Shown here: piece by piece, positions 17,255-46,415 of the stretch
Layout: every line of letters begins with the position of its first letter
How positions within the stretch are numbered: position 1 is the stretch's first letter
Assembly (NCBI GenBank): GCA_033813415.1
Contig: JAPXRV010000001.1
Coordinates: 40,524-104,523, forward strand
Reading direction: 5' to 3'
DNA length: 64,000 nucleotides
DNA from: Opitutales bacterium
GTDB taxonomy: Bacteria > Verrucomicrobiota > Verrucomicrobiia > Opitutales > JAFGAQ01
Position numbers and translations under genes: made by a program
The notes under the pieces: generated by a model
The model's input: the letters and a program-made list of their open reading frames with translations, nothing else
Databases searched by the model: none
Told to the model about the DNA's origin: nothing

Positions 17255-17449
17255 AGTTTCGCCATACCCGCATCGGCTACCTGCTCGCTGGTTATTTGGA
17301 ACGATTCAGACAGTGACAGACAGCTGGAATAAGACTGTAATTACAACACTTCTCAGACAGTGTTTCCTGTCTTAAGTGATCATGATATCACAACAACGCC
17401 GCGTCCGGATGCCCTTTGTTTTGGTTCCGCCTTCGCAAAAGAAACCATA

Positions 17450-18403
17450 TCAAAGGTATCCTCTCAGCATGTCGGGAAGCTGGTTCAGACTGTAGCGAAG
17501 GGAAGTCAGGGTGAAGGCGTTTGCGTCGGTGTCAGCCTTCAGAATGAAGTGAAGTTCAGGGCACTCCTCCCAGTATGGCATGTTTGGCATTGGGATCTTG
17601 AATGGTCCGGAGTGGACGTCTGAGGCTTCCTCTGTATCAGAGGTCGCCGTCGTCTCTTCGTCGGAATTCTCTTCTTTTTTTGGTTCGAGGCTGCCAATCA
17701 TGCGCTTGGCAACATACACGGCGGCTGCCTCCGCTCTGAATTCGGAAGCCATCAATGGATCATTCTGGTGCCGGACTGGATGGGTCACTTCAGCCGGAAT
17801 GTTGTGCGACATTAAGTAGTGAGCCGCAATCATGGTATGATCCCATCCGATGATTTGCTGCTGGAGGGTTAGCATCTCCTGTTCGGTGGATGGCGCCATA
17901 CGGATGATCCGGTGCATCTCAGGCGTAAACGCATACAGCGCAACCAAATGTCCAACTCCATGGATCAAGCCCGAGACATAGTCAGAATCTCCCTGAGCTG
18001 AATGCTCGGAGTAGCTCAACAGCTCCCGCGTCATGATGGCGCAACCAATGCTCTGGCGCCAGAAAGAATTCCAGTCCACATCGGGAGCTTTGTCGGTGAA
18101 ACGTTGCAAGTCCTCAAGCACCGGAGTCGCCAAGGCCATTTGCCGGATCTGCTTGGTTCCGAGGTAGAACACGGCATCCTGAACACTATTCACTTTTTCC
18201 GTGAACCCGAAAAATACAGAGTTCACCATCTGCAGTAGTCTGGCTGTGAGCGATGGATCCCGCCGGATGATCTCTGCAATCTGGCCGGTGTAGTCCTGAT
18301 CCGCCGTCGCCAGATCCTGAAACGTCGAATTGATGCGACGGAGTGAGCCCAATCGAGGACAGGACTCAATTGACTTTCGGATTTCTGCGTCAGAAAATGG
18401 CAT
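17450..18403 (-). CDS. HDOD domain protein with acidic C-terminal tail
   Basis: N-terminal HDOD-like region (LPRLGSLRRINSTFQDLATADQDYTGQIAEIIRRDPSLTARLLQMVNSVFFG...HGVGHLV), followed by the acidic stretch KKEENSDEETTATSDTEEASD. Confidence 0.7.
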   Translation of the reverse strand: MPFSDAEIRKSIESCPRLGSLRRINSTFQDLATADQDYTGQIAEIIRRDPSLTARLLQMVNSVFFGFTEKVNSVQDAVFYLGTKQIRQMALATPVLEDLQRFTDKAPDVDWNSFWRQSIGCAIMTRELLSYSEHSAQGDSDYVSGLIHGVGHLVALYAFTPEMHRIIRMAPSTEQEMLTLQQQIIGWDHTMIAAHYLMSHNIPAEVTHPVRHQNDPLMASEFRAEAAAVYVAKRMIGSLEPKKEENSDEETTATSDTEEASDVHSGPFKIPMPNMPYWEECPELHFILKADTDANAFTLTSLRYSLNQLPDMLRGYL

Positions 18404-18474
18404 CGGAATTGAGCATCATAGAATCAGCAATCATCCGCTTCTTCAATTCCAAATCAAATCCCTTTGTCGAAGGG

Positions 18475-20397
18475 CTACTCGCTCCCCGGCAGGTATCCCT
18501 GATTGAGTTGATTGCGAATACGATTGAGCTGGTTCTTGCCTTTCTCGATTTGAATCCGGGTGCTTTCCTTCTGTCCGAGCAGCGCCAGTTTGTCGAACTC
18601 AAGCTGATCAATGAGTTTTTCGGTTTCTCCGCTGTTTGTTTGGGAGAATCCAACCTCCGCAGCTTCCTGAACTGTGATCGAGTGGGATCCCTGGTTTAGG
18701 ATGAAGCCACCGGCTATGCAGAACACCGACAAGGCCAGATAGGTGAAAGAAATTTGCTCAGAGGACAAAATGCTAACGTATAGGAAAACCACACCCATGG
18801 TTTGAATCAGCAGTGAAGTGAAAACTCCTCCCGATCGTGACTGACGACTACGGGTGACAGTATGCTGATGCGCGTGGCGCGAGGGCGGACCCTTGATCGT
18901 CTTTTTCAGCGAATTGAGCTCCTTGTCGATCTTGTCCACCGACACCCCGAGACTGGCCGACTTTTCTTCCATCTCCTTGAGACTTTTCTCTGCAACTTGC
19001 TGTTGGATCCTCAGATCCGCCTGCTTTTCCGCCCAGGCTGAAGCAATTTTGGCACGGATCCTCGAGCGATCTTCCAAAGAGAGCAGCGCATTGTAGGCAT
19101 TGATGGAGGCTCGCGCATTGCTTGCCAGCCGCCATGTTTCACCTGTGTGCCGGAAATAGACTGGCTTGTTCTCCAGGAAAGCCAGCATCGCATCAGCGGT
19201 GTTGGCGAAGACACGTCTCAATAATTCCGGAGTGAAATGGCTGAATTCTGCGAGCAGAGAAAGATAAGCCCGATGATCCTTCTCCGGAATGGTATGGCAA
19301 ATCATCGTGTACTGCTTGAGCTTGACCATGCATTCTTCAAACAGTTTCGGCTGTTCCTGTTCCACTACAAGGCTGATCGCGAGGCGCGTTTCCCGGTCAA
19401 GTGAGTAACCATTGGGATGCTTGCCGAACAGTTTGGGATAACGACTCCGAACCCAATTCATGCATTCCTGACTTTCCCCGGGGCTGCACATCATAGCGAT
19501 GGTTTCATCGTTGCATACCTTCAGCAACGCCGCCCACTTCATCCAGCGTTTTTCAACCTCGTTGAACTGGGAGAGAATGCGATGCCCCCGATCGATCAAC
19601 TCCTGCGTGTTTCCAGACTGGCTTTTCCTGGTTTGGATCAAAGTGTGCAAAAGAGAAGGGTATCCCCGTGTTTCCTGGAAATACTGATGGGCTACGTTGG
19701 GATCAAAGTCGTAAGCCTCAAGCAGTCTAAGCGTCTCTTCAGCATTCAAAGGCTCCAGCCTTATCTGCACCGCCGAATTCACCAGAGACTCCCAGTTATT
19801 GAAGGTTCCAGGGATTTCGATCAGGTTGCTTTCCGACGAAATCAGTAATGAAATAACCTGCGTGGGCAGAATCGATTCAGATATCCGGTTCAGAAAGTGA
19901 GTAAAACTGCTTTTAATCGACGAGGGAATTTCCGGGTAATCGTCAACGATGAAGATGAGCCGGAGATCTTGGATCAAATTGATCCCGGACGCGAGGTTTT
20001 CAGGATTTTCAATCACTGAAAGCAGGGTATCTGCCCAATGCCGTTCCACACTTACCGTTTCACCGCGATCCGCATTCAGCGCCCGTTCTGGTGCATTGAG
20101 TGCCATGATCATGGGCTCCATGTCTCCCATGTTCGTCCGGCCCGATCCGATCAAATCACGGAAAAACGCAAAACCACTGTCATGCGATGTCGCTCCCCCG
20201 ATGTGGAAGGAAACAACCGGAAGCCCCTCCTCTTGAAGGTAGCCGGAAAACTGATTCAGAAACGCGCTTTTCCCAATCCCTTCGGGACCCCATACCAAGG
20301 CAAACTGAAAATGGGCACGCGTGGAGGAACGATGCAGAAGATGCTTCTCCACCATCTGAAGTTCATTTTCGCGTCCAATGAAATACTGGGATGCCAT
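18475..20397 (-). CDS. AAA_16/STAND-like P-loop NTPase with C-terminal coiled-coil, TM hairpin and second coiled-coil
   Basis: FIGRENEL lead-in, Walker A VWGPEGIGKS, Walker B LIFIVDDY, and RLEPLNAEETLRLLE. Two hydrophobic helices are present (VFTSLLIQTMGVVFLYVSIL and ISFTYLALSVFCIAGGFIL), flanked by heptad-like K/E/Q-rich segments. Confidence 0.6.
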   Translation of the reverse strand: MASQYFIGRENELQMVEKHLLHRSSTRAHFQFALVWGPEGIGKSAFLNQFSGYLQEEGLPVVSFHIGGATSHDSGFAFFRDLIGSGRTNMGDMEPMIMALNAPERALNADRGETVSVERHWADTLLSVIENPENLASGINLIQDLRLIFIVDDYPEIPSSIKSSFTHFLNRISESILPTQVISLLISSESNLIEIPGTFNNWESLVNSAVQIRLEPLNAEETLRLLEAYDFDPNVAHQYFQETRGYPSLLHTLIQTRKSQSGNTQELIDRGHRILSQFNEVEKRWMKWAALLKVCNDETIAMMCSPGESQECMNWVRSRYPKLFGKHPNGYSLDRETRLAISLVVEQEQPKLFEECMVKLKQYTMICHTIPEKDHRAYLSLLAEFSHFTPELLRRVFANTADAMLAFLENKPVYFRHTGETWRLASNARASINAYNALLSLEDRSRIRAKIASAWAEKQADLRIQQQVAEKSLKEMEEKSASLGVSVDKIDKELNSLKKTIKGPPSRHAHQHTVTRSRQSRSGGVFTSLLIQTMGVVFLYVSILSSEQISFTYLALSVFCIAGGFILNQGSHSITVQEAAEVGFSQTNSGETEKLIDQLEFDKLALLGQKESTRIQIEKGKNQLNRIRNQLNQGYLPGSE

Positions 20398-20619
20398 GCA
20401 ACATCGATTATCGGACTTCTGTTTCGAATCTTAACTCGTCTTTGACGATTGATCCCTCAAAATAACTGTCAGATCCATTCTCACCGAGGGATAATGAGTG
20501 GGGATAGGAACTCGGGAGCTTGCGGGTTAACGATTCGTATGACACCTTGAGCATCCATACCGCAGGACGGTTTGTGCGGCAGCGTCTCATCCATTTAACA
20601 ACAAGAACCCTCATCAACT

Positions 20620-21471
20620 ATGAATCCATCCGAAAACAGTTTGTGGAAAACAATCAAGGAATACCGTGATATCCGATTCGAGTCCCTCGGAAACGAAGGC
20701 ATTGTCAAGATAACGATCAACCGGCCCTCTAAACGGAATGCTTTTCGTCCTGAGACCGTCCATGAGATGATGGACGCGTTTTCGATTGCAAGGGATGATG
20801 GCAGGGTAGGGGCCATTCTACTCACGGGAGCAGGGCCTCATACTGACGGAAAGTATGCGTTTTGTTCGGGAGGGGATCAAAGCATCCGTGGACATGCCGG
20901 CTATGTTGATGCCGACGGAACCCCGCGCCTCAATGTTCTGGATCTTCAGAAGATGATTCGCTCCATACCCAAAGTCGTCATTGCTCTCGTTGCAGGTTAT
21001 GCGATCGGAGGCGGTCACGTGTTGCATGTGGTGTGTGATCTTTCCATTGCGGCCGACAATGCCATATTCGGACAAACCGGGCCAAGGGTAGGGAGTTTCG
21101 ACGGCGGATTCGGCTCAAGTTTCCTCGCACGTTGTGTCGGGCAGAAAAAGGCGAGGGAAATCTGGTACTTGTGTAGGCAATACTCTGCACAAGAGGCGCT
21201 TGATATGGGTTTGGTCAATACGGTGGTTCCGGTAGGCAAACTGGAGTCGGAAGGCATCCAATGGGCACGGGAAGTCATGGAAAAAAGTCCGTTGGCAATC
21301 CGTTGCCTGAAGTCTGCTTTCAATGCCGAGTTGGACGGACAGGCAGGGATCCAGGAACTGGCTGGAAATGCTACCTTGCTATACTATCTGAGTGACGAAG
21401 GATCCGAAGGGAAAAAAGCTTATCTGGAAAAGCGTCGGCCAAATTTCATCAAATTCCCATGGCTTCCGTAA
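20620..21471 (+). CDS. menB: 1,4-dihydroxy-2-naphthoyl-CoA synthase
   Basis: [41 protein letters not shown] and [38 protein letters not shown] are typical of the crotonase-fold MenB. Confidence 0.95.
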
Positions 21472-22212: not shown

Positions 22213-22719
22213 CTACCGGAGAACGGACAGCAGTTTTTCGGTGCTTTGCCGGATATTGTCCTTCCATCTCAACCCGATGATGGGCTGGCCGGTTTCGGCA
22301 TCGTTGAATGGAAGCAATTCATCGTCGTCCACTAAAAACCTGTAATCGACGGTGAGTTCTTCTCCGGCCTTTATGTCCCTTGCGGCAAAAACGAAGCCCA
22401 GGTGCCACAGCCCATTGGGAGAAAAACTGTGATTGATGTTGCATTCGTCGGGCCAATCCGCGCTGACGGTGTAGAAGCGTTCGAACCACCTCACGGAGGA
22501 AGTGTCTTCGATGCTTCCAGGCTCAAAAGCCAGTTTTTCCTGGAGCGAATAGACGCGATCAATGCGATCCGGTGAAACGATCACAGCGCCCTGACAGACG
22601 TCAACTGTGAGAAAAATACCACGACCGGCACCCGGAATACGGGATCCATCGACACGATACGGAATCGTAAACATACGTTTGATTTGGGATTGGTGAGAAA
22701 CAAAAGAATACTGTGACAT
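22213..22719 (-). CDS. SET-domain protein (putative lysine methyltransferase)
   Basis: GAGRGIFLTVDVCQGAVIV, NHSFSPN and GEELTVDYRF are the three hallmark SET motifs. The start is ambiguous (ATG at 22719; the ORF maximum is 22764). Confidence 0.75.
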   Translation of the reverse strand: MSQYSFVSHQSQIKRMFTIPYRVDGSRIPGAGRGIFLTVDVCQGAVIVSPDRIDRVYSLQEKLAFEPGSIEDTSSVRWFERFYTVSADWPDECNINHSFSPNGLWHLGFVFAARDIKAGEELTVDYRFLVDDDELLPFNDAETGQPIIGLRWKDNIRQSTEKLLSVLR

Positions 22720-23001
22720 TACCGTGGATGCCGGTTCAAATGAAAAGTGTTTTCCCGGGAGCAAAAGAATGAAAGCAATCTGCGCACAATAAATATTATG
22801 TCTAATTCCGGTTTGTCGGGATTCCCTCTGGTTCCATCCTTGGCAATTTTGTAACGCCCAACAATACCTGCGCCAGTTGGTTGCAATCGTCGGGAATCCT
22901 CTATCGTTAGATTGTAATATTCAGCGGTTCACTATCCATGTGGGATTTGGAATCCGTTGGATTCAACCAGCTATCCAAGATCCACCAACAATCCGTATCT
23001 C

Positions 23002-23491: not shown

Positions 23492-25432
23492 TTATTCGTC
23501 TGCTGATTCTGCATCTTCGAGATCGGACTGGGATTGCTCCCAGTCCTTCATGGCGCTTTCGATTTGATATTTTACTCTCTCGTAGGCTTCCATGTCCGTC
23601 TTCAGGTCGGGTCTTCCCGAAAAGAATTCCGGATTCTTCATTTTTTCCTCCCAATCCAAAAGCGTCTTCTCCAGGGCCATAACGCGGCTTTCCGCAGAGC
23701 TGACGGCCTTTTTGAGAGGCCCGAGCCTTTGGAGCTTTTCGGCTTTCGCCCTTCTCACATCTTTGGCAGACGATCCGCCTGTGGTGTTCTTGCGGCTGTT
23801 GTTTGATTTGCTATCCAAGGCCTGATCTTCTTCAATTTTTGCCAGATAGGCCGATACATTACACCAGAACATCCGGTGGGCCATGGGGCTGATCTCCAGG
23901 GTTTGGGTGACGAGAGGATCGAGGAAGTCCCGGTCGTGGGAAATGATCATGAGCGCACCAGAGTATTCCTTCAAAGCATCCTGTAGGATCTTTTTTGTAG
24001 CAATGTCGAGGTGGTTTGTGGGTTCGTCCAGAACCATCAGGTTGCATGGTTTCAGAAGCATTCGGGCGAGGGCCAAACGGTTCTTCTCCCCACCACTTAG
24101 CACCGCGACTTTTTTGAATGCGGCATCTCCCGAAAACAGAAATGAACCGAGAACGTCCCGTGTGCGTTGTTCGGGTGCACCCGAGATCAAGGCCGATTCA
24201 AGAACCGAATGATCCGGATTCAGTTGGTCTGTCTGGTGTTGGGCAAAGTAACCGATGATGGTTTTGGAACCAACATGGCGATGGCCACTTTGATACGGTT
24301 CCTCTCCGGCGATGATCCGCGCCAAAGTCGATTTTCCGGCTCCGTTGACTCCGACAACGGCAACCCGCTGCCCTTTTTCCAGTTTGAGGTCGAATCCACT
24401 GAAGAGGGTTAGACTGCCATACGATTTATGGATCTGATCCAGTTGGATCAGCAACTGGTGGGAAGGCGGGGTTTCTGCAAATCGAAATCGAAGGGACGCT
24501 TCATCCTGTTCGATCTCGATGCGCTCAACTTTCTCGAGTTGTTTGATCCGGCTTTGAACCTGACTTGCTTTGGTTGCCTTTGCCCTGAAGCGGTCAATGA
24601 AATCCTGAGTCTTTTCGATCTGCCGATCCTGATTGGCCTTCAACGCAATCAGTTGCGCCTTTCTAAACGCACTCTCCCTTTCATAGTACGTGAAGTTGCC
24701 CGCGTAGACATCCAAATGCCCTCTGCTGAGAGCAAATGTTTTTTTGGTCAGCGAATCCAGGAAGGCACGGTCGTGTGAGATGATGACCAGTCCGCCTTGA
24801 TATGACGAAAGAAAAGCCTCGAGCCAACGCTGGGATGGCAAGTCGAGGTGATTGGTGGGCTCGTCGAGAAGAAGGTAGTCAGGATGCTTGAGAAGTAGCT
24901 TGGCAAGGGCGATTCGCATTTGCCAGCCACCGGAGAATTCCTTTGTGGAGCGTTCGAAGTCTTTAATCTGAAAACCCAGTCCCATAAGGACTTTCTCAGT
25001 TCTCATTCTGAGCTTGTGAGCTTCTCTCAACTGGAGCTCACCCTCAATGCGGTGAATCATTTCCCAGTCCTCGAGGTCGTTCTCATCAACCGCCTCGCCC
25101 TCGATCCGCCCCGCAACCCGCTCATAGGCGGCGTCCAGCGTATGCTGAAGGGATAAGATGCTGTCTTCGGCTTTCTCCACCTCTTCGATAAGAGGAAGCC
25201 CATCCCCTTCAATCCCATCCTGAGGCAAATACCCAATCGACATCCCCTTCCCCACTGCAATTTGGCCGTCATCCAGCTCGACCTTACCTAAGATTGCTTT
25301 CAGAAAGGTCGTTTTTCCGGTTCCGTTACGGCCGGCAAGCGCGATGCGATCGCGCACGGATATGTTGCCGGATATGCCGTCAAACACGATCTGGGGACCA
25401 TAACGTAAACTCAGGTTTCGAAATTCAATCAC
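23492..25432 (-). CDS. ABC-F family ATPase (two ABC domains, no TM domain)
   Basis: Two Walker A motifs (GRNGTGKTT and GVNGAGKST), two signature motifs (FSGGWQMR and LSGGEKNR), an inter-domain linker and a C-terminal coiled-coil. Start taken at GTG 25432 (VIEFRNLSLRYG); the ORF maximum is 25555. Confidence 0.9.
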   Translation of the reverse strand: MIEFRNLSLRYGPQIVFDGISGNISVRDRIALAGRNGTGKTTFLKAILGKVELDDGQIAVGKGMSIGYLPQDGIEGDGLPLIEEVEKAEDSILSLQHTLDAAYERVAGRIEGEAVDENDLEDWEMIHRIEGELQLREAHKLRMRTEKVLMGLGFQIKDFERSTKEFSGGWQMRIALAKLLLKHPDYLLLDEPTNHLDLPSQRWLEAFLSSYQGGLVIISHDRAFLDSLTKKTFALSRGHLDVYAGNFTYYERESAFRKAQLIALKANQDRQIEKTQDFIDRFRAKATKASQVQSRIKQLEKVERIEIEQDEASLRFRFAETPPSHQLLIQLDQIHKSYGSLTLFSGFDLKLEKGQRVAVVGVNGAGKSTLARIIAGEEPYQSGHRHVGSKTIIGYFAQHQTDQLNPDHSVLESALISGAPEQRTRDVLGSFLFSGDAAFKKVAVLSGGEKNRLALARMLLKPCNLMVLDEPTNHLDIATKKILQDALKEYSGALMIISHDRDFLDPLVTQTLEISPMAHRMFWCNVSAYLAKIEEDQALDSKSNNSRKNTTGGSSAKDVRRAKAEKLQRLGPLKKAVSSAESRVMALEKTLLDWEEKMKNPEFFSGRPDLKTDMEAYERVKYQIESAMKDWEQSQSDLEDAESADE

Positions 25433-25609
25433 ATAACCAAGGGATAAACCGAAGCGTGCAGGCGCCAAGGAAAATATGATCCGGAACCACAGATAGGATC
25501 TGATTTCCGAATGATTCGAAAACCCTTTGGCCATAGGAAGCAGAAAAGCCTTCACCCGAAGATGAAGGCCTTGTTTGTGCGAAAAACTATGGCTTGCCTG
25601 TTTACCGGA

Positions 25610-27439
25610 TCAGTAGGGCTTGCCCCGCGATAGGATTTTCTGGGCCTGATCGGTTTCGTCCACCAGTTTCGGAAATCTCATGACTTCCGTGTTCGGTTGC
25701 GGCCGCTCAGAAGGAGATACGATCGGCTTTTGGGCTGGTGCCGACATGACGCTTCCAGGCTTGATGGCCGGTTTCGCCACTGGCTGAGCCTGAGCCGGTC
25801 TTGCCACCGGAGTCTGGCCTTGGGCTGGTGCCGGACGTTGGACGGGAACCTGAGCTTGTGCCGCTGGCCTTTGTGCGGCGGCAGGAGCTGGAGTTGCATC
25901 GCCTGCTGGTGCAGCAGCTCCCCTGATGTTGAGTTGGGGCTTTGCCGCAGGCAGCCCGGTTCCGGGCTGACGCAAATTGAGTTGGGGCTTTCTTGCAGGC
26001 AATCCCATCTCTTGTGCAGTCGGGAAATGGAGCCTTCTGGCTTGTTCTGCGGTCGGTGCCGGCCTGGGAGCTGCAGGATTTCCTGCTGGAGCCGATGCGG
26101 CGGGCCTCATACCCTGCTGCGGGGGAACGGCAGACGGACGAGCGGGAGCTGGTCCTGCTCCAGGAACGGCGGGTCTCCTAACCGGGGCACCGGCTGCGGG
26201 TTGTGCACCTGCCGTTGCAGGTCGGACTGGAGGAACAGCAGGAGCTCCTTCCGGGGCACCGGCCGGTTTTGATGGCCGGACCGATGGGGTCTCGACAATG
26301 AAATCCGGTTGGCTGGCAAGCTGTTTGAGCAGATCTTCCCCAATGGGATAACCTTCAGCCAATCTGACCGCGGCGTGAATGGTTGCCTCCAGCTGGGCAT
26401 AGTTGCGTTCCCATTCGTAGTTCTTCAGAAAGTCAATTGCCGAGGAATCAAAACCACGGAATGAAAATTGACGGTTGTCCCGTGCGTAGTTCTTCGCGAT
26501 CGTCAGCGCCATCTCGGGGATGTCGTCTGAGCATTCATTGAGCGTGGGAACGAATATTTCCTTTTGTCCGAGAATCAGATAGAAATCCTCATCAATTTTG
26601 CCCTTGGAATACTGGGTGTCCAGATCCTCATTCAAACAGAACACAAAACGAACCTGATTCTGAATCGCGGAAAATGGACCCGCTTTCCGGTAGAGCTTCA
26701 ATACCACATCTCTGTGGACCGGCTGCAAATCGTAGGCTTCCAGCAGCACCACCATGATGTTCCTCGCTGAATCCTCACCTGAAAGCATGCGAAGAATTTC
26801 GAACGACGTGATTTTGTCGTTCGAAAGGTAAAGGAACAAATGATCCTTCGAGGGATACAGGCTTTCGATATCCTCGCAGATGAGGTGAAAATGGGTTCCT
26901 GCCGGACCTACGAGCACCAGATGGCTAGGACCTTGTTTCATCGAAAGGATCTCACGATGAAACTTCCGGCTCATTTCCGATTTCAACGGGAAGGACATAA
27001 ACGCATCCTTGTCGTCCGTTGCAACCCGCCTGCCAGCCTCTGACATCACTTCCGCCGCATGCGTCGGGCCGGCTGCCGCCATGCCGTTGATAAGTTCCGC
27101 TGTTTTCCTGAGCAGCGAACGCACATTCAATGGCTTGTGGAAAACGTCAATCCTAAGCTGTCTGAGCCTTTCGATCACATCCTCTCCGAGGAAGGCCGAA
27201 ATCATGATCACGGGAATTCGTGGGTTGATCAGCCTGACCTGATCGATGAGATCGATACCCTTGAGGTCCGGCATTGTTTGGTCAACGACGCACAACTGAT
27301 AGTCATCCTTTTTAAATTGCTTGAGCGCCTCCAACGGATTTGCAAACGGGGTTACTTCGTAGTCGGCCTGTGTATACAAATCCGCCAGCAACGAACGGAA
27401 ATCGTCGTCATCGTCTACAATTAGAATGCGGTGCGCCAT
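25610..27439 (-). CDS. response regulator: REC + degenerate sigma54-interaction (AAA+) like domain + Pro/Ala-rich C-terminal tail
   Basis: REC domain has ILIVDDDDDF, VVDQTMPDLKG and FHKP. The central region aligns by eye to the NtrC AAA+ domain (VRFVFCLNEDL..G.IDEDFY, DIPEMALTI, NYEWERNYAQLE). Its Walker A is VGPAGTHFH and its Walker B is VLLEAYD. The last ~200 aa are P/A/Q-rich with no HTH. Confidence 0.75.
   Translation of the reverse strand: MAHRILIVDDDDDFRSLLADLYTQADYEVTPFANPLEALKQFKKDDYQLCVVDQTMPDLKGIDLIDQVRLINPRIPVIMISAFLGEDVIERLRQLRIDVFHKPLNVRSLLRKTAELINGMAAAGPTHAAEVMSEAGRRVATDDKDAFMSFPLKSEMSRKFHREILSMKQGPSHLVLVGPAGTHFHLICEDIESLYPSKDHLFLYLSNDKITSFEILRMLSGEDSARNIMVVLLEAYDLQPVHRDVVLKLYRKAGPFSAIQNQVRFVFCLNEDLDTQYSKGKIDEDFYLILGQKEIFVPTLNECSDDIPEMALTIAKNYARDNRQFSFRGFDSSAIDFLKNYEWERNYAQLEATIHAAVRLAEGYPIGEDLLKQLASQPDFIVETPSVRPSKPAGAPEGAPAVPPVRPATAGAQPAAGAPVRRPAVPGAGPAPARPSAVPPQQGMRPAASAPAGNPAAPRPAPTAEQARRLHFPTAQEMGLPARKPQLNLRQPGTGLPAAKPQLNIRGAAAPAGDATPAPAAAQRPAAQAQVPVQRPAPAQGQTPVARPAQAQPVAKPAIKPGSVMSAPAQKPIVSPSERPQPNTEVMRFPKLVDETDQAQKILSRGKPY
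25919..26005 (-). repeat. in-frame tandem duplication encoding GLPARKPQLNLRQ / GLPAAKPQLNIRG
   Basis: Two copies of about 33 bp (…attgagttggggctttcttgcaggcaatccc… and …gttgagttggggctttgccgcaggcagccc…) lie about 48 bp apart inside the Pro/Ala-rich tail. Confidence 0.6.
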
Positions 27440-27473: not shown

Positions 27474-27842
27474 TTATTTTCCCGACATGTTGAGCTTCTC
27501 ATCGGTCTTTCGCAAGAGAGAAATGACATTCAACGGCTTGTGAAATATCTCAGTGTTCACATTCTTGAGATTCTGGATCAAATCCTGATTCAAATATCCA
27601 GATACGAGAATAATCGGAATGTTCGGTTCCGAACTCCGTATGCGTTTGATGAGTTCTTCCCCGGACATTTCCGGCATGTTGTGGTCTGTCACGACCGCGT
27701 CAAATTCGTGCTGGCTGAGCTCTCCCAAAGCATTGTGGGCACTGTTTACAGCAGTAACGGTATGTCCTGCCTGCGTGAACACGTCTTTGAGCAGACCTCT
27801 GAAATCGTCGTCGTCGTCTACAATGAGAATTCTGCCGGGCAT
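27474..27842 (-). CDS. single-domain CheY-like response regulator
   Basis: ILIVDDDDDF, phospho-acceptor VVTDHNMPEMSG, and FHKPLNVISLLRKT. 122 aa. It is a close paralog of the REC domain of the next gene. Confidence 0.9.
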   Translation of the reverse strand: MPGRILIVDDDDDFRGLLKDVFTQAGHTVTAVNSAHNALGELSQHEFDAVVTDHNMPEMSGEELIKRIRSSEPNIPIILVSGYLNQDLIQNLKNVNTEIFHKPLNVISLLRKTDEKLNMSGK

Positions 27843-27991: not shown

Positions 27992-28486
27992 TCAAGTAAC
28001 AGGTTGGGTCGCCTGTGTTTCGAGTTTTTCCAAGGCCATTGCCATCGAATTCAGAGAGGTGGCATACCAGATCACCGGACGATTGAGGAGTTTTTCCCAA
28101 TGATCCACCGCAGGTTTGCTGAGATAATAGCAGGAAGCGATGCATACACACTCGTCAAGCGTATCGAAAGGAAGACTCCAGGTGGACCAGCAAAGTTCGA
28201 GCGAAGATTCTGCGGTGACCTTGTTCTTCAATTCAAGGTTTCCGAGGCTGATCACTCCGATTTTGTGCGTGTCGATCACGAGATCAATCAGGCTTGCCTC
28301 GTCCAGGACCTGAAGGTCGTATATCAGAATACTCAGGAGTGAAGCCTGCTTGTAATTGCCCGCCTGAATAGCACTGAGCAGACGGGCGTTGGCCTTTTCG
28401 ACGTGTTCGCTTTTGATCAGCTTGGATTCCAATAAGGATGCAGCGAGGTAACGATTGGAACGGATGATGAGTTGCTGGAATTCCAT
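27992..28486 (-). CDS. stand-alone T2SSE_N (GspE/PilB N-terminal, MshEN-like) domain protein
   Basis: By-eye alignment to PilB/GspE N-terminal domains: RYLAASLLESKLIKSEHVEKANARL, LSILIYDLQVLDEASLIDLV, WSLPFDTLDECVCIASCYYLSKPAVDHW and LNSMAMALEKL. It has no ATPase domain. Start at ATG 28486. Confidence 0.5.
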   Translation of the reverse strand: MEFQQLIIRSNRYLAASLLESKLIKSEHVEKANARLLSAIQAGNYKQASLLSILIYDLQVLDEASLIDLVIDTHKIGVISLGNLELKNKVTAESSLELCWSTWSLPFDTLDECVCIASCYYLSKPAVDHWEKLLNRPVIWYATSLNSMAMALEKLETQATQPVT

Positions 28487-30951: not shown

Positions 30952-32166
30952 TCAAACCGTTTGCAGAATCATTTCCGAAAACTCGATCTCCCCTTGAAGG
31001 ACCAGTTTCCGGGCATGATCCCGCAGACAAGTCATGCCGTTGTTCGATGCAAGTGACCGGATCATCTGCCCGGGAGTTTTGTTTATTACACTCTCCCGGA
31101 TAGCATCGTTCGGGATCATCACTTCAAATATTCCAATCCGCTCGTGCAATGTATGATCGGATGCTTCCTTTGCGCTGGCGCCACTGAGAGCTGCCTTTCT
31201 GCAGAGAACAACGGGTTCGTCATCCTCTCCCTTCCCTAATGCAGCCCTCTCCTCTTCAGATGCAGCGTAGCATTCTTTGAGATGGCCAGGAATCCTCCGC
31301 AAAAGGCGTTGCCCCACGATTCCGGACAGGGTTTCCGCAAGGAGAAACGGCTCAATTCCCATATCGACCATCCGCACAACCGCGCTCGCCGTGTCCTGCG
31401 TATGGAGCGAGCTGAGAACCCGGTGTCCGGTCATTGCCGCATGGATTCCGATTGCCGCGGTTTCCTCATCCCGGATTTCTCCAATCAACATGACATCCGG
31501 ATCATGCCTCAAAAAGGCACGGAGAACCGATGCGAAATCCAACCCGATCGCGGGATTGATGGGAACCTGAACAATTCCTTCCAGCGCATATTCCACTGGA
31601 TCCTCAACGGTGAGGATTTTCAGTTCCGGACGATTGATTTCCTGAAGAGCACAATACAAGGTGGTGGTTTTTCCACTTCCAGTCGGGCCGGTAGCCAGGA
31701 TTATTCCACTGGGTTGCCCAAGAGCGGTGCGGATCCTGCCGAGCTCGGGTTCCGGAATTCCAAGCGCATCCATTGAAAGCCCCACCCTCATTCGATCCAG
31801 AAATCTGAGCACTACGCTTTCTCCAAAACGGGTGGGCAAAGTGGACATTCGCACATCGACCCGTCGAGCACCGGCATTGAGCGTCATCCTTCCATCCTGC
31901 GGAATCCTGAACTCGGCAATGTCCGCACCGTTCATGACTTTGATACCGGACAAAACCGCCGGATAAAGGTGTGGATCAAGCCATGCGGCCGGGACAAAAC
32001 TTCCATTCACACGCTGCCGTATCCGCACCCCGTCCTTCTGCGGTTCGATGTGAAGATCCGACGCCCCGTTATTTACAGCATCAATCAACAAATGCTGCAC
32101 GTAACCCATCAGATCCTGACCGTCTCCGACGGGTGTCGACGCAGCGGCTTTCTGGATCTCTTTCAC
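30952..32166 (-). CDS. GspE/PilB-family secretion ATPase, short form (no N1 domain)
   Basis: Walker [18 protein letters not shown], Asp box ILTVEDPVEY, Walker B DVMLIGEIRDEETA, and His box GHRVLSSLHT. 404 aa. Confidence 0.85.
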   Translation of the reverse strand: MKEIQKAAASTPVGDGQDLMGYVQHLLIDAVNNGASDLHIEPQKDGVRIRQRVNGSFVPAAWLDPHLYPAVLSGIKVMNGADIAEFRIPQDGRMTLNAGARRVDVRMSTLPTRFGESVVLRFLDRMRVGLSMDALGIPEPELGRIRTALGQPSGIILATGPTGSGKTTTLYCALQEINRPELKILTVEDPVEYALEGIVQVPINPAIGLDFASVLRAFLRHDPDVMLIGEIRDEETAAIGIHAAMTGHRVLSSLHTQDTASAVVRMVDMGIEPFLLAETLSGIVGQRLLRRIPGHLKECYAASEEERAALGKGEDDEPVVLCRKAALSGASAKEASDHTLHERIGIFEVMIPNDAIRESVINKTPGQMIRSLASNNGMTCLRDHARKLVLQGEIEFSEMILQTV

Positions 32167-32234: not shown

Positions 32235-33293
32235 TTAAGCCATGAGCTTCTCGCGCATCTCGTTCGGGAACTGCGATTTAACGATGGCTTCGTTGGCGTC
32301 GATGATTCCCTGATTGTAAAGACTGCGAAGATGGTCATCGAGCGTGATCATCCCATGGCGCGCGCCAGTCTGAATGTCGGATGTGATGCGGTAGGTTTTG
32401 TTCTCGCGAATCAGCTGGGCAATAGCGTTCGTTGTGATCATGATCTCGAAAGCAGCCACACGGCCCCCACCGATTCTCTTGCACAGAACCTGCGAGAGCA
32501 CGCATATGATGGAGGAAGCCAGCTGGGTACGAATCTGGTCTTTTGCCCCCGACGGGAAAACGTCAACAATACGGTCTACCGTTCTCGCGGATCCCGTAGT
32601 GTGCAAGGTTGCAAAGACCAAATGCCCGGTTTCAGCTGCGGTAATCGCGGTCTCGATGGTTTCAAGGTCACGCATTTCCCCCACCAGAATGACGTCCGGG
32701 TCTTGCCGAAGCCCTGAGCGGATCGCTTCCGCAAAGGACGAAACGTCAATGCCGACCTCTCTCTGGGTAATGATACACTTCTTGTGGGTGTGATAATACT
32801 CAATCGGGTCTTCGATCGTGATCACGTGATCTTCCCGGTGCGTGTTGATCCAGTCGATCATCGACGCAAGTGTGGTTGACTTCCCGGATCCTGTCGGCCC
32901 CGTCACCAGGAACAAGCCTCTGGGTCTCATCAACAGATCCTTCATCTTGTCCGGAAGTCCCACCTGTCCAAGCGTCAGAATATCATTCGGAATTTGTCGC
33001 AGAACAATTTCAAAACTTCCCTTCGCCTTGAACGCATTCACGCGGAACCGTGCCCTGTCCCTGAACGCAAATCCGAAGTCCGCACCCCCAACCGTCTTGA
33101 TCTTCTGAATGTGGTGTTCGGATGCAATCGCATCCACGAGCTCTTCCGTATCCTTGGGGGTAAGTGCCGGTCCATCCGCGGGAGTGATGGTACCGTTGAT
33201 CCGAAAACAGGGGGGCTGACCGACATGGATGTGAAGGTCGGATGCATTCTCATCCACCATCAATTCCAAAAGCTCATTCATCTGATAACTCAT
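32235..33293 (-). CDS. pilT: type IV pilus retraction ATPase PilT
   Basis: [71 protein letters not shown] and AHxxQLIRENK-like [10 protein letters not shown]. 352 aa. Confidence 0.9.
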
Positions 33294-33362: not shown

Positions 33363-35063
33363 TTAAGCATCGGTGCCAAATGAATCATCTGAAGAAAAGC
33401 CCAGCACGGCAAGTATTTCTTCTGCCGAAGTCACTCCATTGACGATTTTGTTCCAGGCGTTTTCCCTCATTGAACAGAATCCCGTGTCGTCTAGGTGCCG
33501 TGCTAGACGTCTGCGCGATTCCCCATCGTGCACCAATCGAAGAAACGTGTCATCGGCCTGGAAAGCCTCGTATATTCCTGTTCTCCCTCTGTATGACTTA
33601 TCCTCCACTCCTGCTTTCCAGAAAATGAGTGGCTTATTACCGCAATCCGCGGTGTTCAGGCCAGGTTCGCCCAATGCCCGCCGGAGGCTCGTATCCGGCG
33701 TGTAGGGAATCCGCTCCTCCGGGATCATCTTTCTGACCAATCGCTGCGACATCGCTCCCCGGAACGCCGCACTCAAAAGATAGGACTCGACACCAAGATC
33801 GCGCAAGCGAATCACAGCGCCCAAAGCATCTCTCGTATGGAGCGACGTGAAGACGGCGTGGCCGGTGAATGCAGCTTGGACGGCTATCGATGCGGTTTCG
33901 CGATCCCTGATCTCCCCGATCATGATCGAGTCCGGATTCTGCCTCAGGATGGAGCGCAGAGCCGAAGCGAATGTCATTCCGGACCTTTTGTTGACTTGCA
34001 CCTGATTGACCCCATGAACCACTGACTCGACAGGATCCTCGACCGTGATGATCTTCAGACTGTCCGGATCCATCGCACGGAGAGCCGCGTAAAGCGTGGT
34101 CGATTTCCCTGCTCCCGTCGGTCCGCAAACCACAAAGAGTCCATCCGAACCTTGGATTACCTTTTCAATGGTTTGCCGCACCCCCGCATCCATACCCAGC
34201 TCATCCAAGGTCCTGTTTGCTGAGTTGTCCATGAGCAACCGGACCGCAAGGCATTCGCCATGGAGTGATGGAATCGACGAAACCCGGCAGTCCACGTTGG
34301 TTCCGGCGTGGAGGAAGGTCATGCTTCCGTCCTGCGGCAGTCGCTTCTCACCCAGATTCATTCCGCTCAGAAGCTTCATCCGGGCCGATAGGGCCTGCGA
34401 AAGTTCTTTTTGGGGAGCATCCACCACACAGAGAACCCCGTCCAATCGATACCGCACACGCCCCCCATCTCCAGTTTGCTCGAGATGGATGTCCGACGCT
34501 CCTCGTGAGACCGCATCGCCTATCATCCAATCAATGTAACCCGATACACTGTCCGTTCGCTCCAGTCGACAGAGTGCTGCTCCAATAACCGCCTCCTCTT
34601 CCGGTCGGGTTCCGAATGCCGCCTCCATGAGCCGCTTCCAGTGGTGTGGAGTTGCCAACATGGGCACTACTTTTTTTCCATAGTTTTGGGATAGCAGTTC
34701 GCAATGAACTTCCTGCCATGGATAACACACCGCGGCCTGCACCGAATCATCCGCCCCGATGGATATAGGAAGGATGCGCATCCTTTCAACCTGCTGTTCA
34801 GAAATGCGATCCGTTATCAATTCCGGATCCGGGCGGGAGCTTCCATCGAGCACTGTCACATCAAGTTCAGCCGCCAGACTCCCGAGGATTCTGGCGTTCA
34901 ACTCCTCCGTTCGGCTCAGGCTCAAAGCCTCATAGAGCAGACGTTCGCGCTCAACGTAATCCGCCTCGGCATGAACCCCATCCAGCAGATCATGTGCCTC
35001 GTCTGGCAGGATGAAGTGATGCTTTTCCAGAATCCGGATAATGTAGCTGTGAGCGAGTCCCAC
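33363..35063 (-). CDS. PilB/GspE-family assembly ATPase with T2SSE_N-type N-terminus
   Basis: VCGPTGAGKSTTLYAAL, IITVEDPVE, SIMIGEIRDRETA and GHAVFTSLHT. 566 aa. The GTG start lies 17 nt after the rho stop. Confidence 0.85.
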   Translation of the reverse strand: MGLAHSYIIRILEKHHFILPDEAHDLLDGVHAEADYVERERLLYEALSLSRTEELNARILGSLAAELDVTVLDGSSRPDPELITDRISEQQVERMRILPISIGADDSVQAAVCYPWQEVHCELLSQNYGKKVVPMLATPHHWKRLMEAAFGTRPEEEAVIGAALCRLERTDSVSGYIDWMIGDAVSRGASDIHLEQTGDGGRVRYRLDGVLCVVDAPQKELSQALSARMKLLSGMNLGEKRLPQDGSMTFLHAGTNVDCRVSSIPSLHGECLAVRLLMDNSANRTLDELGMDAGVRQTIEKVIQGSDGLFVVCGPTGAGKSTTLYAALRAMDPDSLKIITVEDPVESVVHGVNQVQVNKRSGMTFASALRSILRQNPDSIMIGEIRDRETASIAVQAAFTGHAVFTSLHTRDALGAVIRLRDLGVESYLLSAAFRGAMSQRLVRKMIPEERIPYTPDTSLRRALGEPGLNTADCGNKPLIFWKAGVEDKSYRGRTGIYEAFQADDTFLRLVHDGESRRRLARHLDDTGFCSMRENAWNKIVNGVTSAEEILAVLGFSSDDSFGTDA

Positions 35064-35080
35064 AGCTCAATCTATAATGA

Positions 35081-37327
35081 CTAGCGATTAACTGTCATCA
35101 AAAATTCGGCATTTGTTCCGGTTTTCTTCACTTTCGAGATCAGCATTTCCATCGCGTCTGTCGAGGGAACTCCCTTCATTGCTCTGCGGAGTGAGTAGAC
35201 TTTGTTCAACTCATCTGGATGGTAAAGCAGTTCTTCCTTGCGTGTGCCACTCTTCTCCATGCTGAGCGCAGGGAAAATACGTTTATCCACCAGCGCGCGG
35301 TCAAGGTGCAACTCCATGTTACCCGTGCCCTTGAACTCCTCAAAAATCACTTCGTCCATCTTGCTGCCGGTTTCGACAAGAGCCGTCGCAATGATGGTCA
35401 GGCTCCCTCCACCTTCGATGTTTCTCGCAGATCCGAAAAAGCGCTTGGGCTTCTGCAGCGCATTGGCTTCCACACCACCCGATAGGATCTTGCCGCTGCT
35501 GGGCATGACCGTGTTGTAGGCGCGCGCCAGACGCGTAATCGAGTCGAGCAATATCACAACGTCCTTGCCTGCCTCTACCATGCGCCTCGATTTCTCAATC
35601 ACCATCTCGGCGGCATGGACATGGCTCTCAGCCGATTCGTCAAACGTGGAAGAAACCACTTCACCCCTTACCCTTCTGCGGAAATCGGTCACTTCCTCAG
35701 GCCGTTCGTCAATCAGAAGAACGATGAGGTGTGCGTCCGGATAATTCGTTTGGATCGAATTCGCCATGCCTTGCAGCAGGACCGTTTTCCCCGTCCGTGG
35801 CGGTGCCACGATCAGGCCTCTTTGTCCAAAACCGATCGGGGAAATCAGGTCGACGACACGCATCGACACTTTGTTGGATTCCTCCTGCTTGTCGCATTCC
35901 AGAAGAATACGGCGGAGAGGATAATAAGGGATCTGTTCGGTGAAGGGAATGATCTGGCCAGCTTGCTCGGCCGTCGTCCCCTGCACTTCGAGGATCGCGG
36001 TAACCAGCGGACATGTGGAGTCCTCCACCGCCGGTATAATCCGGGCGAGAATGTCATGCCCCCTCTTGAGCGCCAGCTTGCGGATAAACAAGGCGGGGAC
36101 AAACGCACTGAGCGCCCTGATCCGATAGCTGTCGGATGAATAGGTCAAGAGTCCGTTTCCGTCTCCAAGGATTTCCAGAACTCCGCGAACCGTGATGATT
36201 CTGCGGTTCGAAAACGCGTGTTTAAGCAAAGCTTCGATCAGCGTCTTGCGATTGGATCCGGACGGAATTTCGGGAGCAAACGGGTGAACAACGGCCCTCA
36301 AGGCTTCCAGAGGCATGTTGTAAATTTCACTGAGGTCAAGAGCTTCGGTTGAAGCGGGAGCGCCTTCAGCGGGAGCGACCTCAGCATGAACCACTTCAGC
36401 TGGTGCGCCTTCAGCGGAAGGTTGCGCTCCCTCATCCGACGCAATAGGCGTTGGATCCATGAGGGACTGGATGCCTTCCAACGTCTGCAGCGCTTGCAGT
36501 CCGTTCAGATTTCCCAGGTCGAGTTGATCGTCCACCTCCGCGTTGAGTCCGTCGATATTGAAACGTTCCCTCCTCGGCTTTTTGTCCACAACCTTGTTTT
36601 TCCAGGGTGGCAGATTCTTCTTCTTGTTCTGCATCTGGGGATTGTTGGAGTGCTGGGAGCCACGGTTTCCTCCATCATGCCGGCCCTGATGGTCATTGCG
36701 GTTGTCAAACCGGGGTCGGAAATCCCGCCCCTGGTGTCCTCCGCCCTGGCGCTGAAAGCCCTGACGGTCCGGACGTCCGCCATGTTCACCCCGGTCGCGT
36801 CCCTGATTCTGCCCTTGCCCCGGATTCTGATTCCGCTGTTGCTGCGGTTGACCTTGATCCCTTGCGCCCCCATCAGCGGGAGTATCCGAATGACTTCTCT
36901 CTTCGCGTTGCTGCGGATGATTGCGTTCCCGCGAATCACCGGAACCGGCATCATCCCGATCCGTTGAGTCCGATGACGGCTGGGGTTCCGGACTCCTTTC
37001 GACTGGAGGATTGTAGTCTTCAGCGTCCGAACTGAACAATAACTCCCGCTGGGCTTCCGGTTTGGGAGGCTTGGGTGCATCCGTGCGGTTGCGGCGCGGC
37101 CCACGCGCCGGATTCCTCTTCTCTGATGCTTCTGGCCGGGGCGTGCCAGACTCTTTTTTTGCAGGCGCTTCGCTTGGAGAAACTGCCGCAGGAACGACAA
37201 CTTCCGCCTGTGCTTCGGAAGCCTCCGCGCGAGGCTTCCTGGGTCTGCGCGTGGATGGCTTGCGTGGGGTTGCGATGGGGGAGATTTCTTCCGGGAGGCC
37301 CTGTTCAGTTTCCTTTGAATCAGTCAT
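35081..37327 (-). CDS. rho: transcription termination factor Rho with an N-terminal extension of about 327 aa
   Basis: The C-terminal ~420 aa align throughout with canonical Rho: [58 protein letters not shown] and [38 protein letters not shown]. Confidence 0.95.
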
Positions 37328-40308: not shown

Positions 40309-40464
40309 GCTGACAAAGCGGTTGGAGTATATGCCTCACTAAGCCCATATTCTGATGGTTCTCCGGTGGATGGATCCGGGTGGGCGTTGTTCTGGTATCG
40401 GGTATAACGATGGCGCTTTGGTATTGTAAAGACAAACCCTAATCCTTTGATTCTTCTCTCCCTT

Positions 40465-40989
40465 ATGAATACCATTGATGCCATCCTGACCCGCCGCAGC
40501 ATACGTTCGTTCAAGCCGGACCCGATCGATCACGGGCAGGTCCTCACCCTCCTGCGCTCCGCGATGCATGCGCCTTCGGCGATTGATGAGCAACCCTGGC
40601 AGTATGTGGTCGTCACAGATCGCGACAAACTCCAGGCGATCCCCACTGCTCACACCCACGCCGGCTTGGTGGCGGGAGCGCCGCTGGCGATTCTGGTGTG
40701 TGGCGATATGTCCCGCCTGAAAGTTGATGGCTACTGGGTTCAGGATTGTTCGTGCGCGGCGCAGAATATCCTGTTGGCGGCTCATGCGTCCGGGCTTGGA
40801 GCGGTTTGGGTCGGAGTATACCCGACAACGGCCAATGTGACTTCGCTCAGCCGGTATTTCGATCTTCCGGAGACTGTAATTCCGTTTGCCCTGATTGCCA
40901 TTGGCCATCCGGCGGAGGAATGTGGCCCCAAAGACACCTTTGATTCCAGTCTTGTCCATTGGGACTCATGGGGAGTTGCCTCAAAATAG
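40465..40989 (+). CDS. nitroreductase family protein
   Basis: IDAILTRRSIRSFKPDPI, QPWQYVVV and ILLAAHASGLGAVWVG. Confidence 0.85.
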   Translation: MNTIDAILTRRSIRSFKPDPIDHGQVLTLLRSAMHAPSAIDEQPWQYVVVTDRDKLQAIPTAHTHAGLVAGAPLAILVCGDMSRLKVDGYWVQDCSCAAQNILLAAHASGLGAVWVGVYPTTANVTSLSRYFDLPETVIPFALIAIGHPAEECGPKDTFDSSLVHWDSWGVASK

Positions 40990-45958: not shown

Positions 45959-46415
45959 GTATTTATCAAAAGATCCCCGAATGACATTACGAAGCCATTG
46001 AACGGCATGTATCCGACACCGTGAACTATGAAATCCGGGGCAGGAATCGATAGACAACTCCGTGTGCATGAGGAAAGGGCTGAAGGTTTTCAACCTACCC
46101 GATTCGCCCCTCGCATGACAAGTCTTGAATCGAGATACCCCCGCTCCGAAGTGCACGAACAAACAAGATCTCCAAAAAAGCGCATTATCAGTGTTGATCA
46201 TCCCCATCGGCTCCCGAAAGCATCCAGGGCCTCCTCTGTCGTTTCTCAGAGTTCCATGGCAGATCTTGTTTCTTAAAAAGCCCATTCCGTGCGCTTAGTC
46301 CTGTCCTCATGGTAGGGCGCTTTTGTCCATCCTGAAAAGGAGCTTGGCTTTTTTGATTGAATGATGTGCAAGCGGTCTTCATATCCAGTCAACGGCATCA
46401 TATTGGCTACTTCCC

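Follow-up and report, generated by a model that had tools for sequence, protein, structure and literature searches.

The window analysed here is the whole 64,000-nucleotide stretch from an Opitutales bacterium (contig JAPXRV010000001.1, positions 40,524 to 104,523). On its minus strand lies the gene for RR1, as we call it, a response regulator of 609 aa whose NtrC-class AAA+ module is dead. The original prediction had placed a 609-aa protein at 25610-27439, and the open reading frame (ORF) on the minus strand has exactly these limits. The gene was assigned from domain matches, a family alignment, an AlphaFold2 (AF2) model built with 20 family sequences, and Foldseek searches. Its parts are arranged as follows, in window coordinates:

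25610..27439, minus strand: RR1 gene, a 609-aa ORF with an ATG start
27083..27439, minus strand: receiver (REC) domain, residues 1-119, phospho-acceptor pocket intact, carrying FHKPLNVRSLLRKT as its family-specific motif
26978..27082, minus strand: inter-domain linker, residues 120-154, variable and largely disordered by prediction (pLDDT, the AF2 per-residue confidence score, <50 at residues 124-144)
26315..26977, minus strand: pseudo-AAA+ module (core and lid), residues 155-375, delimited from alignment columns, AAA_lid_14 and Foldseek
25685..26314, minus strand: predicted disordered tail rich in proline, alanine and glutamine (P/A/Q), residues 376-585, delimited from P/A/Q content and a pLDDT of 30-40
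25613..25684, minus strand: conserved C-terminal motif, residues 586-609 (…RFPKLVDETDQAQKILSRGKPY), delimited from the alignment and an AF2 helix

To judge from its residues, the receiver is the only part of RR1 that still looks functional. It matches Pfam Response_reg (REC, PF00072) with E=1.5e-19, and D9, D10, D53, S81 and K102 are near-invariant across 78 orthologues, with deviations only at D9/D10 in 1-2 sequences. The AF2 model is confident over residues 1-119 and again over residues 155-375 (pLDDT ~90).

By sequence and by predicted fold, the centre of RR1 is a genuine NtrC-class AAA+ homologue. The NCBIfam NtrX model aligns with residues 3-365 (E=4.9e-26), and AAA_lid_14 (PF25601) reaches 35.1 bits, exceeding its gathering score of 27. 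In phmmer searches, residues 248-367 align to NtrC1 (1ny5, domain E ~2e-9) and residues 248-370 to Aquifex NtrC1/NtrC4, ZraR, LuxO and NifA. A Foldseek search with the AF2 model retrieved NtrX, NtrC1, NtrC4, LuxO, VpsR, FleQ, ZraR and PspF (E=1e-20 to 1e-10), with template modelling (TM) scores of ~0.7 against the isolated AAA+ domains of bacterial enhancer-binding proteins (bEBPs). The two core Pfam models fall short on RR1 itself, at 20.2 bits against a threshold of 25 for Sigma54_activ_2 (PF14532) and 11.5 against 20.2 for Sigma54_activat (PF00158); Sigma54_activ_2 is above threshold in a typical orthologue (37.5 bits). Still recognisable in RR1 are the lid motif, a P..L..R..DI-like segment and a W..N..L segment.

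The catalytic sites were compared in an alignment of RR1, 77 orthologues and four canonical activators. The Walker A motif GESGTGKE is replaced by GPAGTHFH in RR1, with Lys changed to Phe (F184), and none of the 78 sequences has Lys in this column (F48/Y21/L7). In Walker B the canonical DE has become LE (VVLLEA): the Asp is replaced by L233 and the Glu is kept. Across the 78 sequences the Asp position is mostly Leu (L59, 0 Asp), and the Glu position is E33/D23. The GAFTGA or L1 loop, which contacts sigma-54, is removed by a 14-16-residue deletion, and the L2 loop has lost 5 residues, in RR1 and in every family member aligned. Both Arg fingers are gone, as FReDLyyRL has become IDEDFYLIL (D283/I289), and their columns read D69 and L52/F16 with 0 Arg. 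At sensor II, GNVRELEN corresponds to RNYAQLEA, in which the Arg is A348; this column holds E, A or N and 0 Arg in the 78 sequences. The original prediction of an intact receiver, a centre aligning with the sigma54 AAA+ module, a missing Walker A Lys and an absent GAFTGA loop was thus borne out under proper alignment. Its further claim that the Walker B DE is missing holds for the Asp and fails for the Glu. As far as the alignment goes, RR1 has none of the determinants needed to hydrolyse ATP, contact sigma-54 or read DNA in the canonical way, and the activities themselves have presumably been lost as well. By alignment and Foldseek, RR1 has one trait of the atypical enhancer-binding proteins (EBPs), a bEBP-derived AAA+ domain without a functional GAFTGA.

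Beyond the AAA+ module, RR1 continues as a 237-aa tail (residues 373-609), 51% of which is P/A/Q and which is predicted to be disordered (pLDDT 30-40). Low-complexity sequence had been predicted in place of the C-terminal helix-turn-helix (HTH). The P/A/Q richness and the loss of the HTH stand: Pfam HTH_8 gives no match in RR1 at E up to 10, and neither this search nor hhalign detected a DNA-binding domain in the tail. The description as mere low complexity does not, since the tail contains conserved islands and ends in a helix-bearing motif. One such island reads RRLHFPT.QEMGLPARKPQLNLRQPG.GLP.AKPQLN.R. The segment LPA.KPQLN[LI]R occurs as a near-duplicate twice at residues ~464-509 (25913-26048, minus strand), is kept in the two closest genome homologues of RR1 (L002 and L003), and may be a linear binding motif. 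At the very end, the conserved 24-residue motif includes a predicted helix at residues 596-605 (pLDDT ~63). In the alignment it is common to RR1 and to 450-480-aa relatives of the same subclade as F..L.DE..LA..IL.

Two origins for this motif were considered. MAFFT placed F..L.DE..LA..IL under helix 2 of HTH_8, but we do not claim it as an HTH remnant; hhalign gave E=0.33 against canonical HTH tails and E=0.18 against the tails of typical members. Derivation from the C-terminus of a second dead regulator of the same operon (paralogue #2, see below), which reads hPLh.P.L..L, was rejected (hhalign E=0.3).

The long tail of ~230 aa is found only in RR1, L002, L003 and their protein-cluster counterparts. 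The rest of the family ranges from 407 to 516 aa, with most members at 431-440 aa and a typical length of ~433 aa. These typical members end in a 57-residue segment (…DYVRA..IL.GGD..KVA.FFG.D…IE..L), a homologue of the Fis-type HTH found in canonical activators (hhalign probability 92%, E=6e-7). The conserved R/R/K positions of its recognition helix are gone, and the net charge of this helix is -0.9, compared with +2.8 in 82 canonical activators (Mann-Whitney p=4e-26). Pfam HTH_8 was undetected in every orthologue tested. Judged from these comparisons, degeneration has affected the ATPase, the contact with sigma-54 and the helix for reading DNA throughout the family, and the Fis-like domain is wholly gone in the window's subclade. 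The long P/A-rich tail is a recent elaboration of one subclade only. The degenerate Fis-like domain of typical members, the restriction of the tail to one subclade and the large conserved family described below all go beyond the original prediction.

To delimit this family, we combined a protein search with a genome scan that took one genome per species. The protein search recovered ~22 unnamed clusters of RR1 type, followed by a sharp fall to canonical activators at ~25% identity. The genome scan identified 101 loci in >100 species genomes. Almost every one carries an Opitutia/Opitutales/Puniceicoccales label or the broader one of Verrucomicrobiota/PVC (Planctomycetes-Verrucomicrobia-Chlamydiae). 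Hosts include Coraliomargarita, Lentimonas, Cerasicoccus arenae, Thalassobacterium sedimentorum and Ruficoccus, and one locus comes from a metagenome-assembled genome labelled Polaribacter. Mean pairwise identity within the family is 42% in the AAA+ core and 28% in the linker. L002 and L003, with 87-89% identity to RR1, served as the reference for the ratio of nonsynonymous to synonymous substitution rates (dN/dS), which is 0.004 for REC, ~0.02 for the dead AAA+ module and 0.013-0.019 for the C-terminal motif; dS is near saturation and the ratios are therefore approximate. The tail has a dN ~5x that of the AAA+ module, plus indels. These estimates indicate that the dead AAA+ module is kept under strong purifying selection.

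The survey of loci revealed a conserved gene neighbourhood around RR1. The genes concerned lie in the window as follows:

27474..27842, minus strand: REC122, a stand-alone 122-aa receiver (Pfam REC E=2.4e-22)
27992..28486, minus strand: partner gene, 164 aa, probable start MEFQQL, with a predicted MshEN/GSPII fold (AF2 and Foldseek)
30952..32166, minus strand: T2SSE ATPase, 404 aa, without an N-terminal GSPII/MshEN domain (Pfam T2SSE E=2e-105, match from residue 20)
32235..33293, minus strand: PilT/PilU retraction ATPase, 352 aa (TIGR01420 455 bits, cutoff 319)
33363..35063, minus strand: PilB/GspE-class ATPase, 566 aa (MshEN and T2SSE by Pfam; NCBIfam GspE and PilB matches, below cutoff)

MshEN/GSPII is the N-terminal regulatory domain of the ATPases that drive type II secretion systems (T2SS) and type IV pili (T4P), and the partner appears to be a free-standing version of it. 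No Pfam family, MshEN included, matched the partner. An exhaustive HMMER search collected 181 clusters of this protein, nearly all free-standing and ~165 aa long. The AF2 model, made with 50 sequences, is confident (pLDDT 94, predicted TM score 0.88), and its 20 best PDB matches are all GSPII/MshEN N-domains of T2SS/T4P ATPases. The best is Thermus PilF GSPII-A (E=1.5e-8, TM 0.70-0.73); others are XpsE-N, X. citri PilB-N with PilZ (7lkm), PilF GSPII-B and MshE with cyclic di-GMP (c-di-GMP). At the level of sequence, comparing the partner with the N-domain of the operon ATPase gave no significant match (hhalign probability 4%, P=0.011); their kinship is established solely by predicted structure. 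The canonical tandem-MshEN protein P0273 is a weak sequence match to the partner (E=7e-6). The assignment gains support from two rare fusions: in P0168 the partner domain follows a degenerate REC-like domain, and in P0227 it follows an ATPase-type N-domain.

MshEN domains are high-affinity c-di-GMP receptors, which bind the ligand through two tandem copies of the 24-residue motif RLGxx(L/V/I)(L/V/I)xxG(L/V/I)(L/V/I)xxxxLxxxLxxQ (PMC5013675). Among 106 partner members, the strict motif was found in none, the relaxed form of its authors in one and the tandem in none. We therefore rejected the partner as a c-di-GMP receptor; with the published motifs missing, it is more likely a docking module.

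In the usual operon the order is stand-alone MshEN/GSPII-fold protein, RR1, paralogue #2 and PilB-class ATPase. Neighbours were counted only at loci with sufficient flanking sequence and on the strand of the RR1 orthologue. The partner gene lies directly upstream of the RR1 orthologue at 51 of 71 typical loci, and upstream at 6/6 loci of the window's subclade. Downstream, paralogue #2 is present at 48/67 typical loci and the PilB-class ATPase at 47/56, whereas neither occurs at any of the five subclade loci counted. Paralogue #2 represents a second family with a REC and a dead AAA+ domain, about 436-466 aa long (L007-L081, e.g. L016 9349-10659). It keeps all receiver residues, has 0 Lys in Walker A and R-L in Walker B, and has GAFTGA deleted. 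Its AAA+ core is more eroded than that of RR1, and its C-terminus (hPLh.P.L..L) is conserved. The operon ATPase carries a GSPII-type domain at its N-terminus, together with GPTGSGKS and a tetra-Cys motif. At full length it scores 564 bits with TIGR02538 PilB and 533 bits with GspE, both under the equivalog cutoffs. The outer neighbours of the family loci resemble unrelated housekeeping genes by eye, and in a promoter and terminator scan of the operon the counts matched shuffle expectation.

The window's subclade has its own arrangement. REC122 duplicates the RR1 receiver, with which it has the motifs DDDDDF and FHKPLNV.SLLRKT in common; only in the window, L001-L006 and L069 does it separate the partner from RR1. 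Three T2SSE ATPases (pilB-type, pilT-type and the 404-aa protein) are encoded 3.5-8 kb from the RR1 operon on the same strand, with glgB between. The closest relatives of the 404-aa ATPase among the fetched loci are the operon PilB-class ATPases (39-41% identity). A split arrangement of ATPase and N-domain is a possibility, with the 404-aa ATPase and the free-standing MshEN-fold protein 3.5 kb apart. Orthology of the window's 404-aa or 566-aa ATPase to the operon ATPase was considered and is unsettled at identities of 39-41% and 31-37%, respectively.

Together, these results suggest that RR1 serves a type IV pilus (or T2SS-like) motor as an adaptor that is controlled by phosphorylation and works without transcription, a reading to which we attach moderate probability. 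Its sequence marks RR1 as an orphan response regulator descended from the NtrC/PilR-class sigma-54 activators. The original prediction had favoured a scaffold or adaptor over a transcription factor. That suggestion, still an indirect one, is strengthened by the conserved operon with a MshEN-fold protein and, in most relatives, a PilB-class ATPase.

We then propose a model for how RR1 may act. Phosphorylation of D53 would alter the conformation or the oligomeric state of the pseudo-AAA+ platform. In its altered state the platform would bind differently to the MshEN-like partner, to the homologous N-domain of the PilB-class ATPase, or to both, and so tune the assembly, activity or placement of the type IV pilus (or T2SS-like) motor. 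A long Pro/Ala-rich tether, predicted to be disordered and ending in the conserved helix, has replaced the degenerate HTH in the window's subclade, and it is tempting to speculate that this terminal helix is a docking motif and that REC122 serves as a phosphate sink or competitor. Every protein-protein contact of RR1 in this model, like its pilus-related output, is one that we infer. A broader and clearly more tentative proposal is that the NtrC/PilR scaffold ceased to be a transcription motor in Opitutia and became a structural regulator of a pilus or secretion motor, gated by phosphorylation. One or two pseudo-AAA+ regulators would join a free GSPII/MshEN domain and dock on, or compete with, the N-domain of the hexameric PilB-class ATPase. 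A ring of bEBP type would in this way govern a second ATPase ring, directly and without DNA, sigma-54 or ATP turnover of its own. In the window's subclade a single regulator with a long disordered tether and a docking helix would fill this role, plus a decoy receiver.

Several observations weigh against the adaptor reading. Its weakest link is the connection between RR1 and a pilus or secretion motor, which is drawn from gene order. That adjacency may simply go back to an ancestral pilR-pilB arrangement, as found in the Myxococcus and Geobacter pil clusters, and need not imply direct contact. The operon ATPase scores under both the PilB and the GspE cutoff, which leaves the machine involved uncertain. 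In the window's subclade the ATPase is not adjacent to RR1, being downstream at 0/5 loci, and one Puniceicoccaceae relative (L001) has no T2SSE gene within 10 kb but has flagellar export genes close by. A domain scan of the window showed no kinase encoded near RR1. In addition, the presumed loss of ATP binding by RR1 is deduced from motifs.

The main alternative for the typical family members is that they are still transcription factors. On this account RR1 would be a sigma-54-independent atypical EBP of the VpsR, TyrR, HupR, PhhR, HsfA or NtrX type that controls pilus genes, contacting DNA either by an element that escapes recognition or in a heteromer with another protein that binds DNA. Its ancestor probably resembled PilR, and pilR genes next to pilB are known elsewhere. 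Typical members also retain the Fis-like three-helix domain. However, the recognition helix of this domain is net acidic and without R/R/K, HTH_8 is undetected there, and in RR1 itself no HTH was detected and the tail is predicted to be disordered. Atypical EBPs without GAFTGA and with altered Walker motifs are known transcription factors, but every characterised one keeps a DNA-binding domain (PMC6158489). For RR1, which has no HTH, we consider a role as transcription factor unlikely.

Another explanation is that RR1 is an anti-activator or poison subunit, whose dead AAA+ module co-assembles with an active sigma-54 activator, such as a PilR/NtrC paralogue encoded elsewhere in the genome, and blocks or tunes its hexamer in a phosphorylation-dependent manner. 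In favour of this, conservation is strong in the AAA+ fold and in the inter-subunit (Arg-finger) region, although the chemistry is altered. Precedents exist in the hetero-oligomeric EBP pair HrpR/HrpS (PMC3105312) and in the inactive AAA+-like LAP1/LULL1, which regulate TorsinA (PMC4999309), and predictions place sigma-54 regulons in Opitutia generally (PMC12316311). Domain searches of the 64-kb window found no kinase, rpoN or canonical bEBP, and none was recognised by eye among the recurring neighbours of the other loci. The conserved operon likewise has no canonical bEBP or rpoN to pair with RR1; its conserved members are the MshEN-fold protein and the T2SSE ATPase, and its second regulator is dead too. 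We regard this explanation as improbable.

RR1 could also be a small-molecule receptor that binds c-di-GMP or another nucleotide through the remodelled P-loop region, possibly together with its partner. The structural neighbours of RR1 include FleQ and VpsR, whose AAA+ domains bind c-di-GMP, and the G..GTHF motif is conserved rather than random. Five residues past the P-loop Lys, however, RR1 has an acidic residue by eye, where FleQ has Arg/Asn, and the usual phosphate-contacting Arg residues are lost. Nor does the partner help this case: MshEN domains bind c-di-GMP with high affinity (PMC5013675), but the partner family is without their motif (relaxed 1/106, tandem 0). We give a receptor function little credence.

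That RR1 is a decaying, functionless remnant of an NtrC-type gene, as the loss of all catalytic motifs and the low-complexity tail with its indels might suggest, is effectively refuted by low dN/dS (0.004-0.02 in REC, AAA+ and the C-terminal motif) and conservation across the family, with intact ORFs in >100 species, invariant family-specific motifs, a conserved operon and a confident fold prediction.

Other genes of the window and of related loci can be described briefly. An ABC-F ATPase gene (two ABC_tran and ABC_tran_Xtn; 23492-25555, minus strand) starts 54 bp downstream of RR1 on the same strand, an adjacency kept only in L002 and L003. The rho gene at 35081-37327 (minus strand) encodes 748 aa, with the Rho RNA-binding domain starting from about residue 381 and an N-terminal extension of ~380 aa without a Pfam match. 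A bacterial SET-domain protein (183 aa; Pfam SET E=4e-8) is encoded at 22213-22764 (minus strand), and at 17450-20397 (minus strand) a 317-aa HDOD-domain protein adjoins a 640-aa STAND/NACHT-like NTPase. Two ORFs, at 40339-40959 (206 aa) and 44672-46285 (537 aa), both on the minus strand, match no Pfam family at E up to 1e-3. In L001, fliP-fliQ-fliR-flhB-flhA and an SRP54-type GTPase gene, which is probably flhF, occupy 14873-21181, 3.5 kb downstream of the operon.

Enhancer-binding proteins are textbook AAA+ ATPases that remodel sigma-54 polymerase, and their known atypical relatives remain DNA-binding transcription factors. In the RR1 family the fold is under strong selection, yet the determinants for ATP, sigma-54 and DNA have been lost together. 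If the proposed mechanism is true, RR1 would represent a new class of cofactor for PilB/T2SS ATPases and a clear case of a transcription machine turned into a post-translational signalling adaptor. In this abundant lineage of marine and soil polysaccharide degraders (Coraliomargarita, Lentimonas, Puniceicoccaceae), the regulation of type IV pili has received next to no study. The finding also offers a concrete annotation for several hundred genes now called hypothetical or misnamed 'NtrC family'. Literature searches on dead-AAA+ response regulators, on Verrucomicrobia NtrC and pili and on PilB cofactors returned no description of an equivalent family. In these sources RR1 has no name beyond generic 'NtrC family' labels, and the partner and the second dead regulator are likewise unnamed.

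Like the NtrC/PilR-class activators NtrC1, NtrC4, ZraR and LuxO, RR1 has a REC-linker-AAA+ architecture with core and lid. Unlike them, it has no Walker A Lys, Walker B Asp, Arg fingers, sensor II Arg, GAFTGA/L1 or HTH, and its L2 is shortened. Because these determinants are lost, RR1 cannot be classified as a functional bEBP. It resembles the atypical, sigma-70-dependent EBPs VpsR, TyrR, PhhR, HupR, HsfA and NtrX in being bEBP-derived without a functional GAFTGA, and some of these also have altered Walker motifs (PMC6158489). NtrX and VpsR are top structural neighbours of RR1. All characterised atypical EBPs, however, keep an HTH and a role as transcription factors, and most bind nucleotide, whereas RR1 has lost every class of nucleotide-contacting residue. 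The operon tie to a T2SSE ATPase and a MshEN-fold protein is no feature of these atypical EBPs.

With RssB, PopA and FimX, RR1 has in common an intact receiver or sensor beside a conserved dead domain. RssB combines REC with an inactive PP2C, and PopA combines REC-REC with a degenerate GGDEF. By analogy with these proteins, RR1 may act through protein binding. In FimX, a degenerate GGDEF-EAL protein, the complex with PilZ docks on the MshEN-like N-domain of PilB (PMC5595344), and such N-domains are known as places where regulators dock. RR1 differs from all three in its output fold, a bEBP AAA+ domain.

Response regulators are also known to act directly on PilB/PilT, namely DrdR (PMC13507683), PATAN-REC proteins (10.1101/2021.06.11.447907) and PilG/PilH (PMC10519157). 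By analogy with PilG/PilH, the PATAN-REC proteins PixG/PixE, DrdR and EmvR, which control the activity or localisation of PilB/PilT without transcription, RR1 may work as a phospho-switch. These regulators are single-domain, tandem-REC or PATAN-REC proteins, and none of them has a bEBP-derived AAA+ module. No NtrC-like or enhancer-binding protein appears among the cofactors named in a 2024 review on PilB.

The partner, for its part, has the same predicted fold as MshE, PilF GSPII-A/B/C, XpsE-N and PilB-N, but unlike them it is free-standing and its 24-residue c-di-GMP motif is missing. The RR1 family comprises bEBP-derived response regulators that go beyond the known atypical EBPs and that have a distinctive, conserved genomic partnership.

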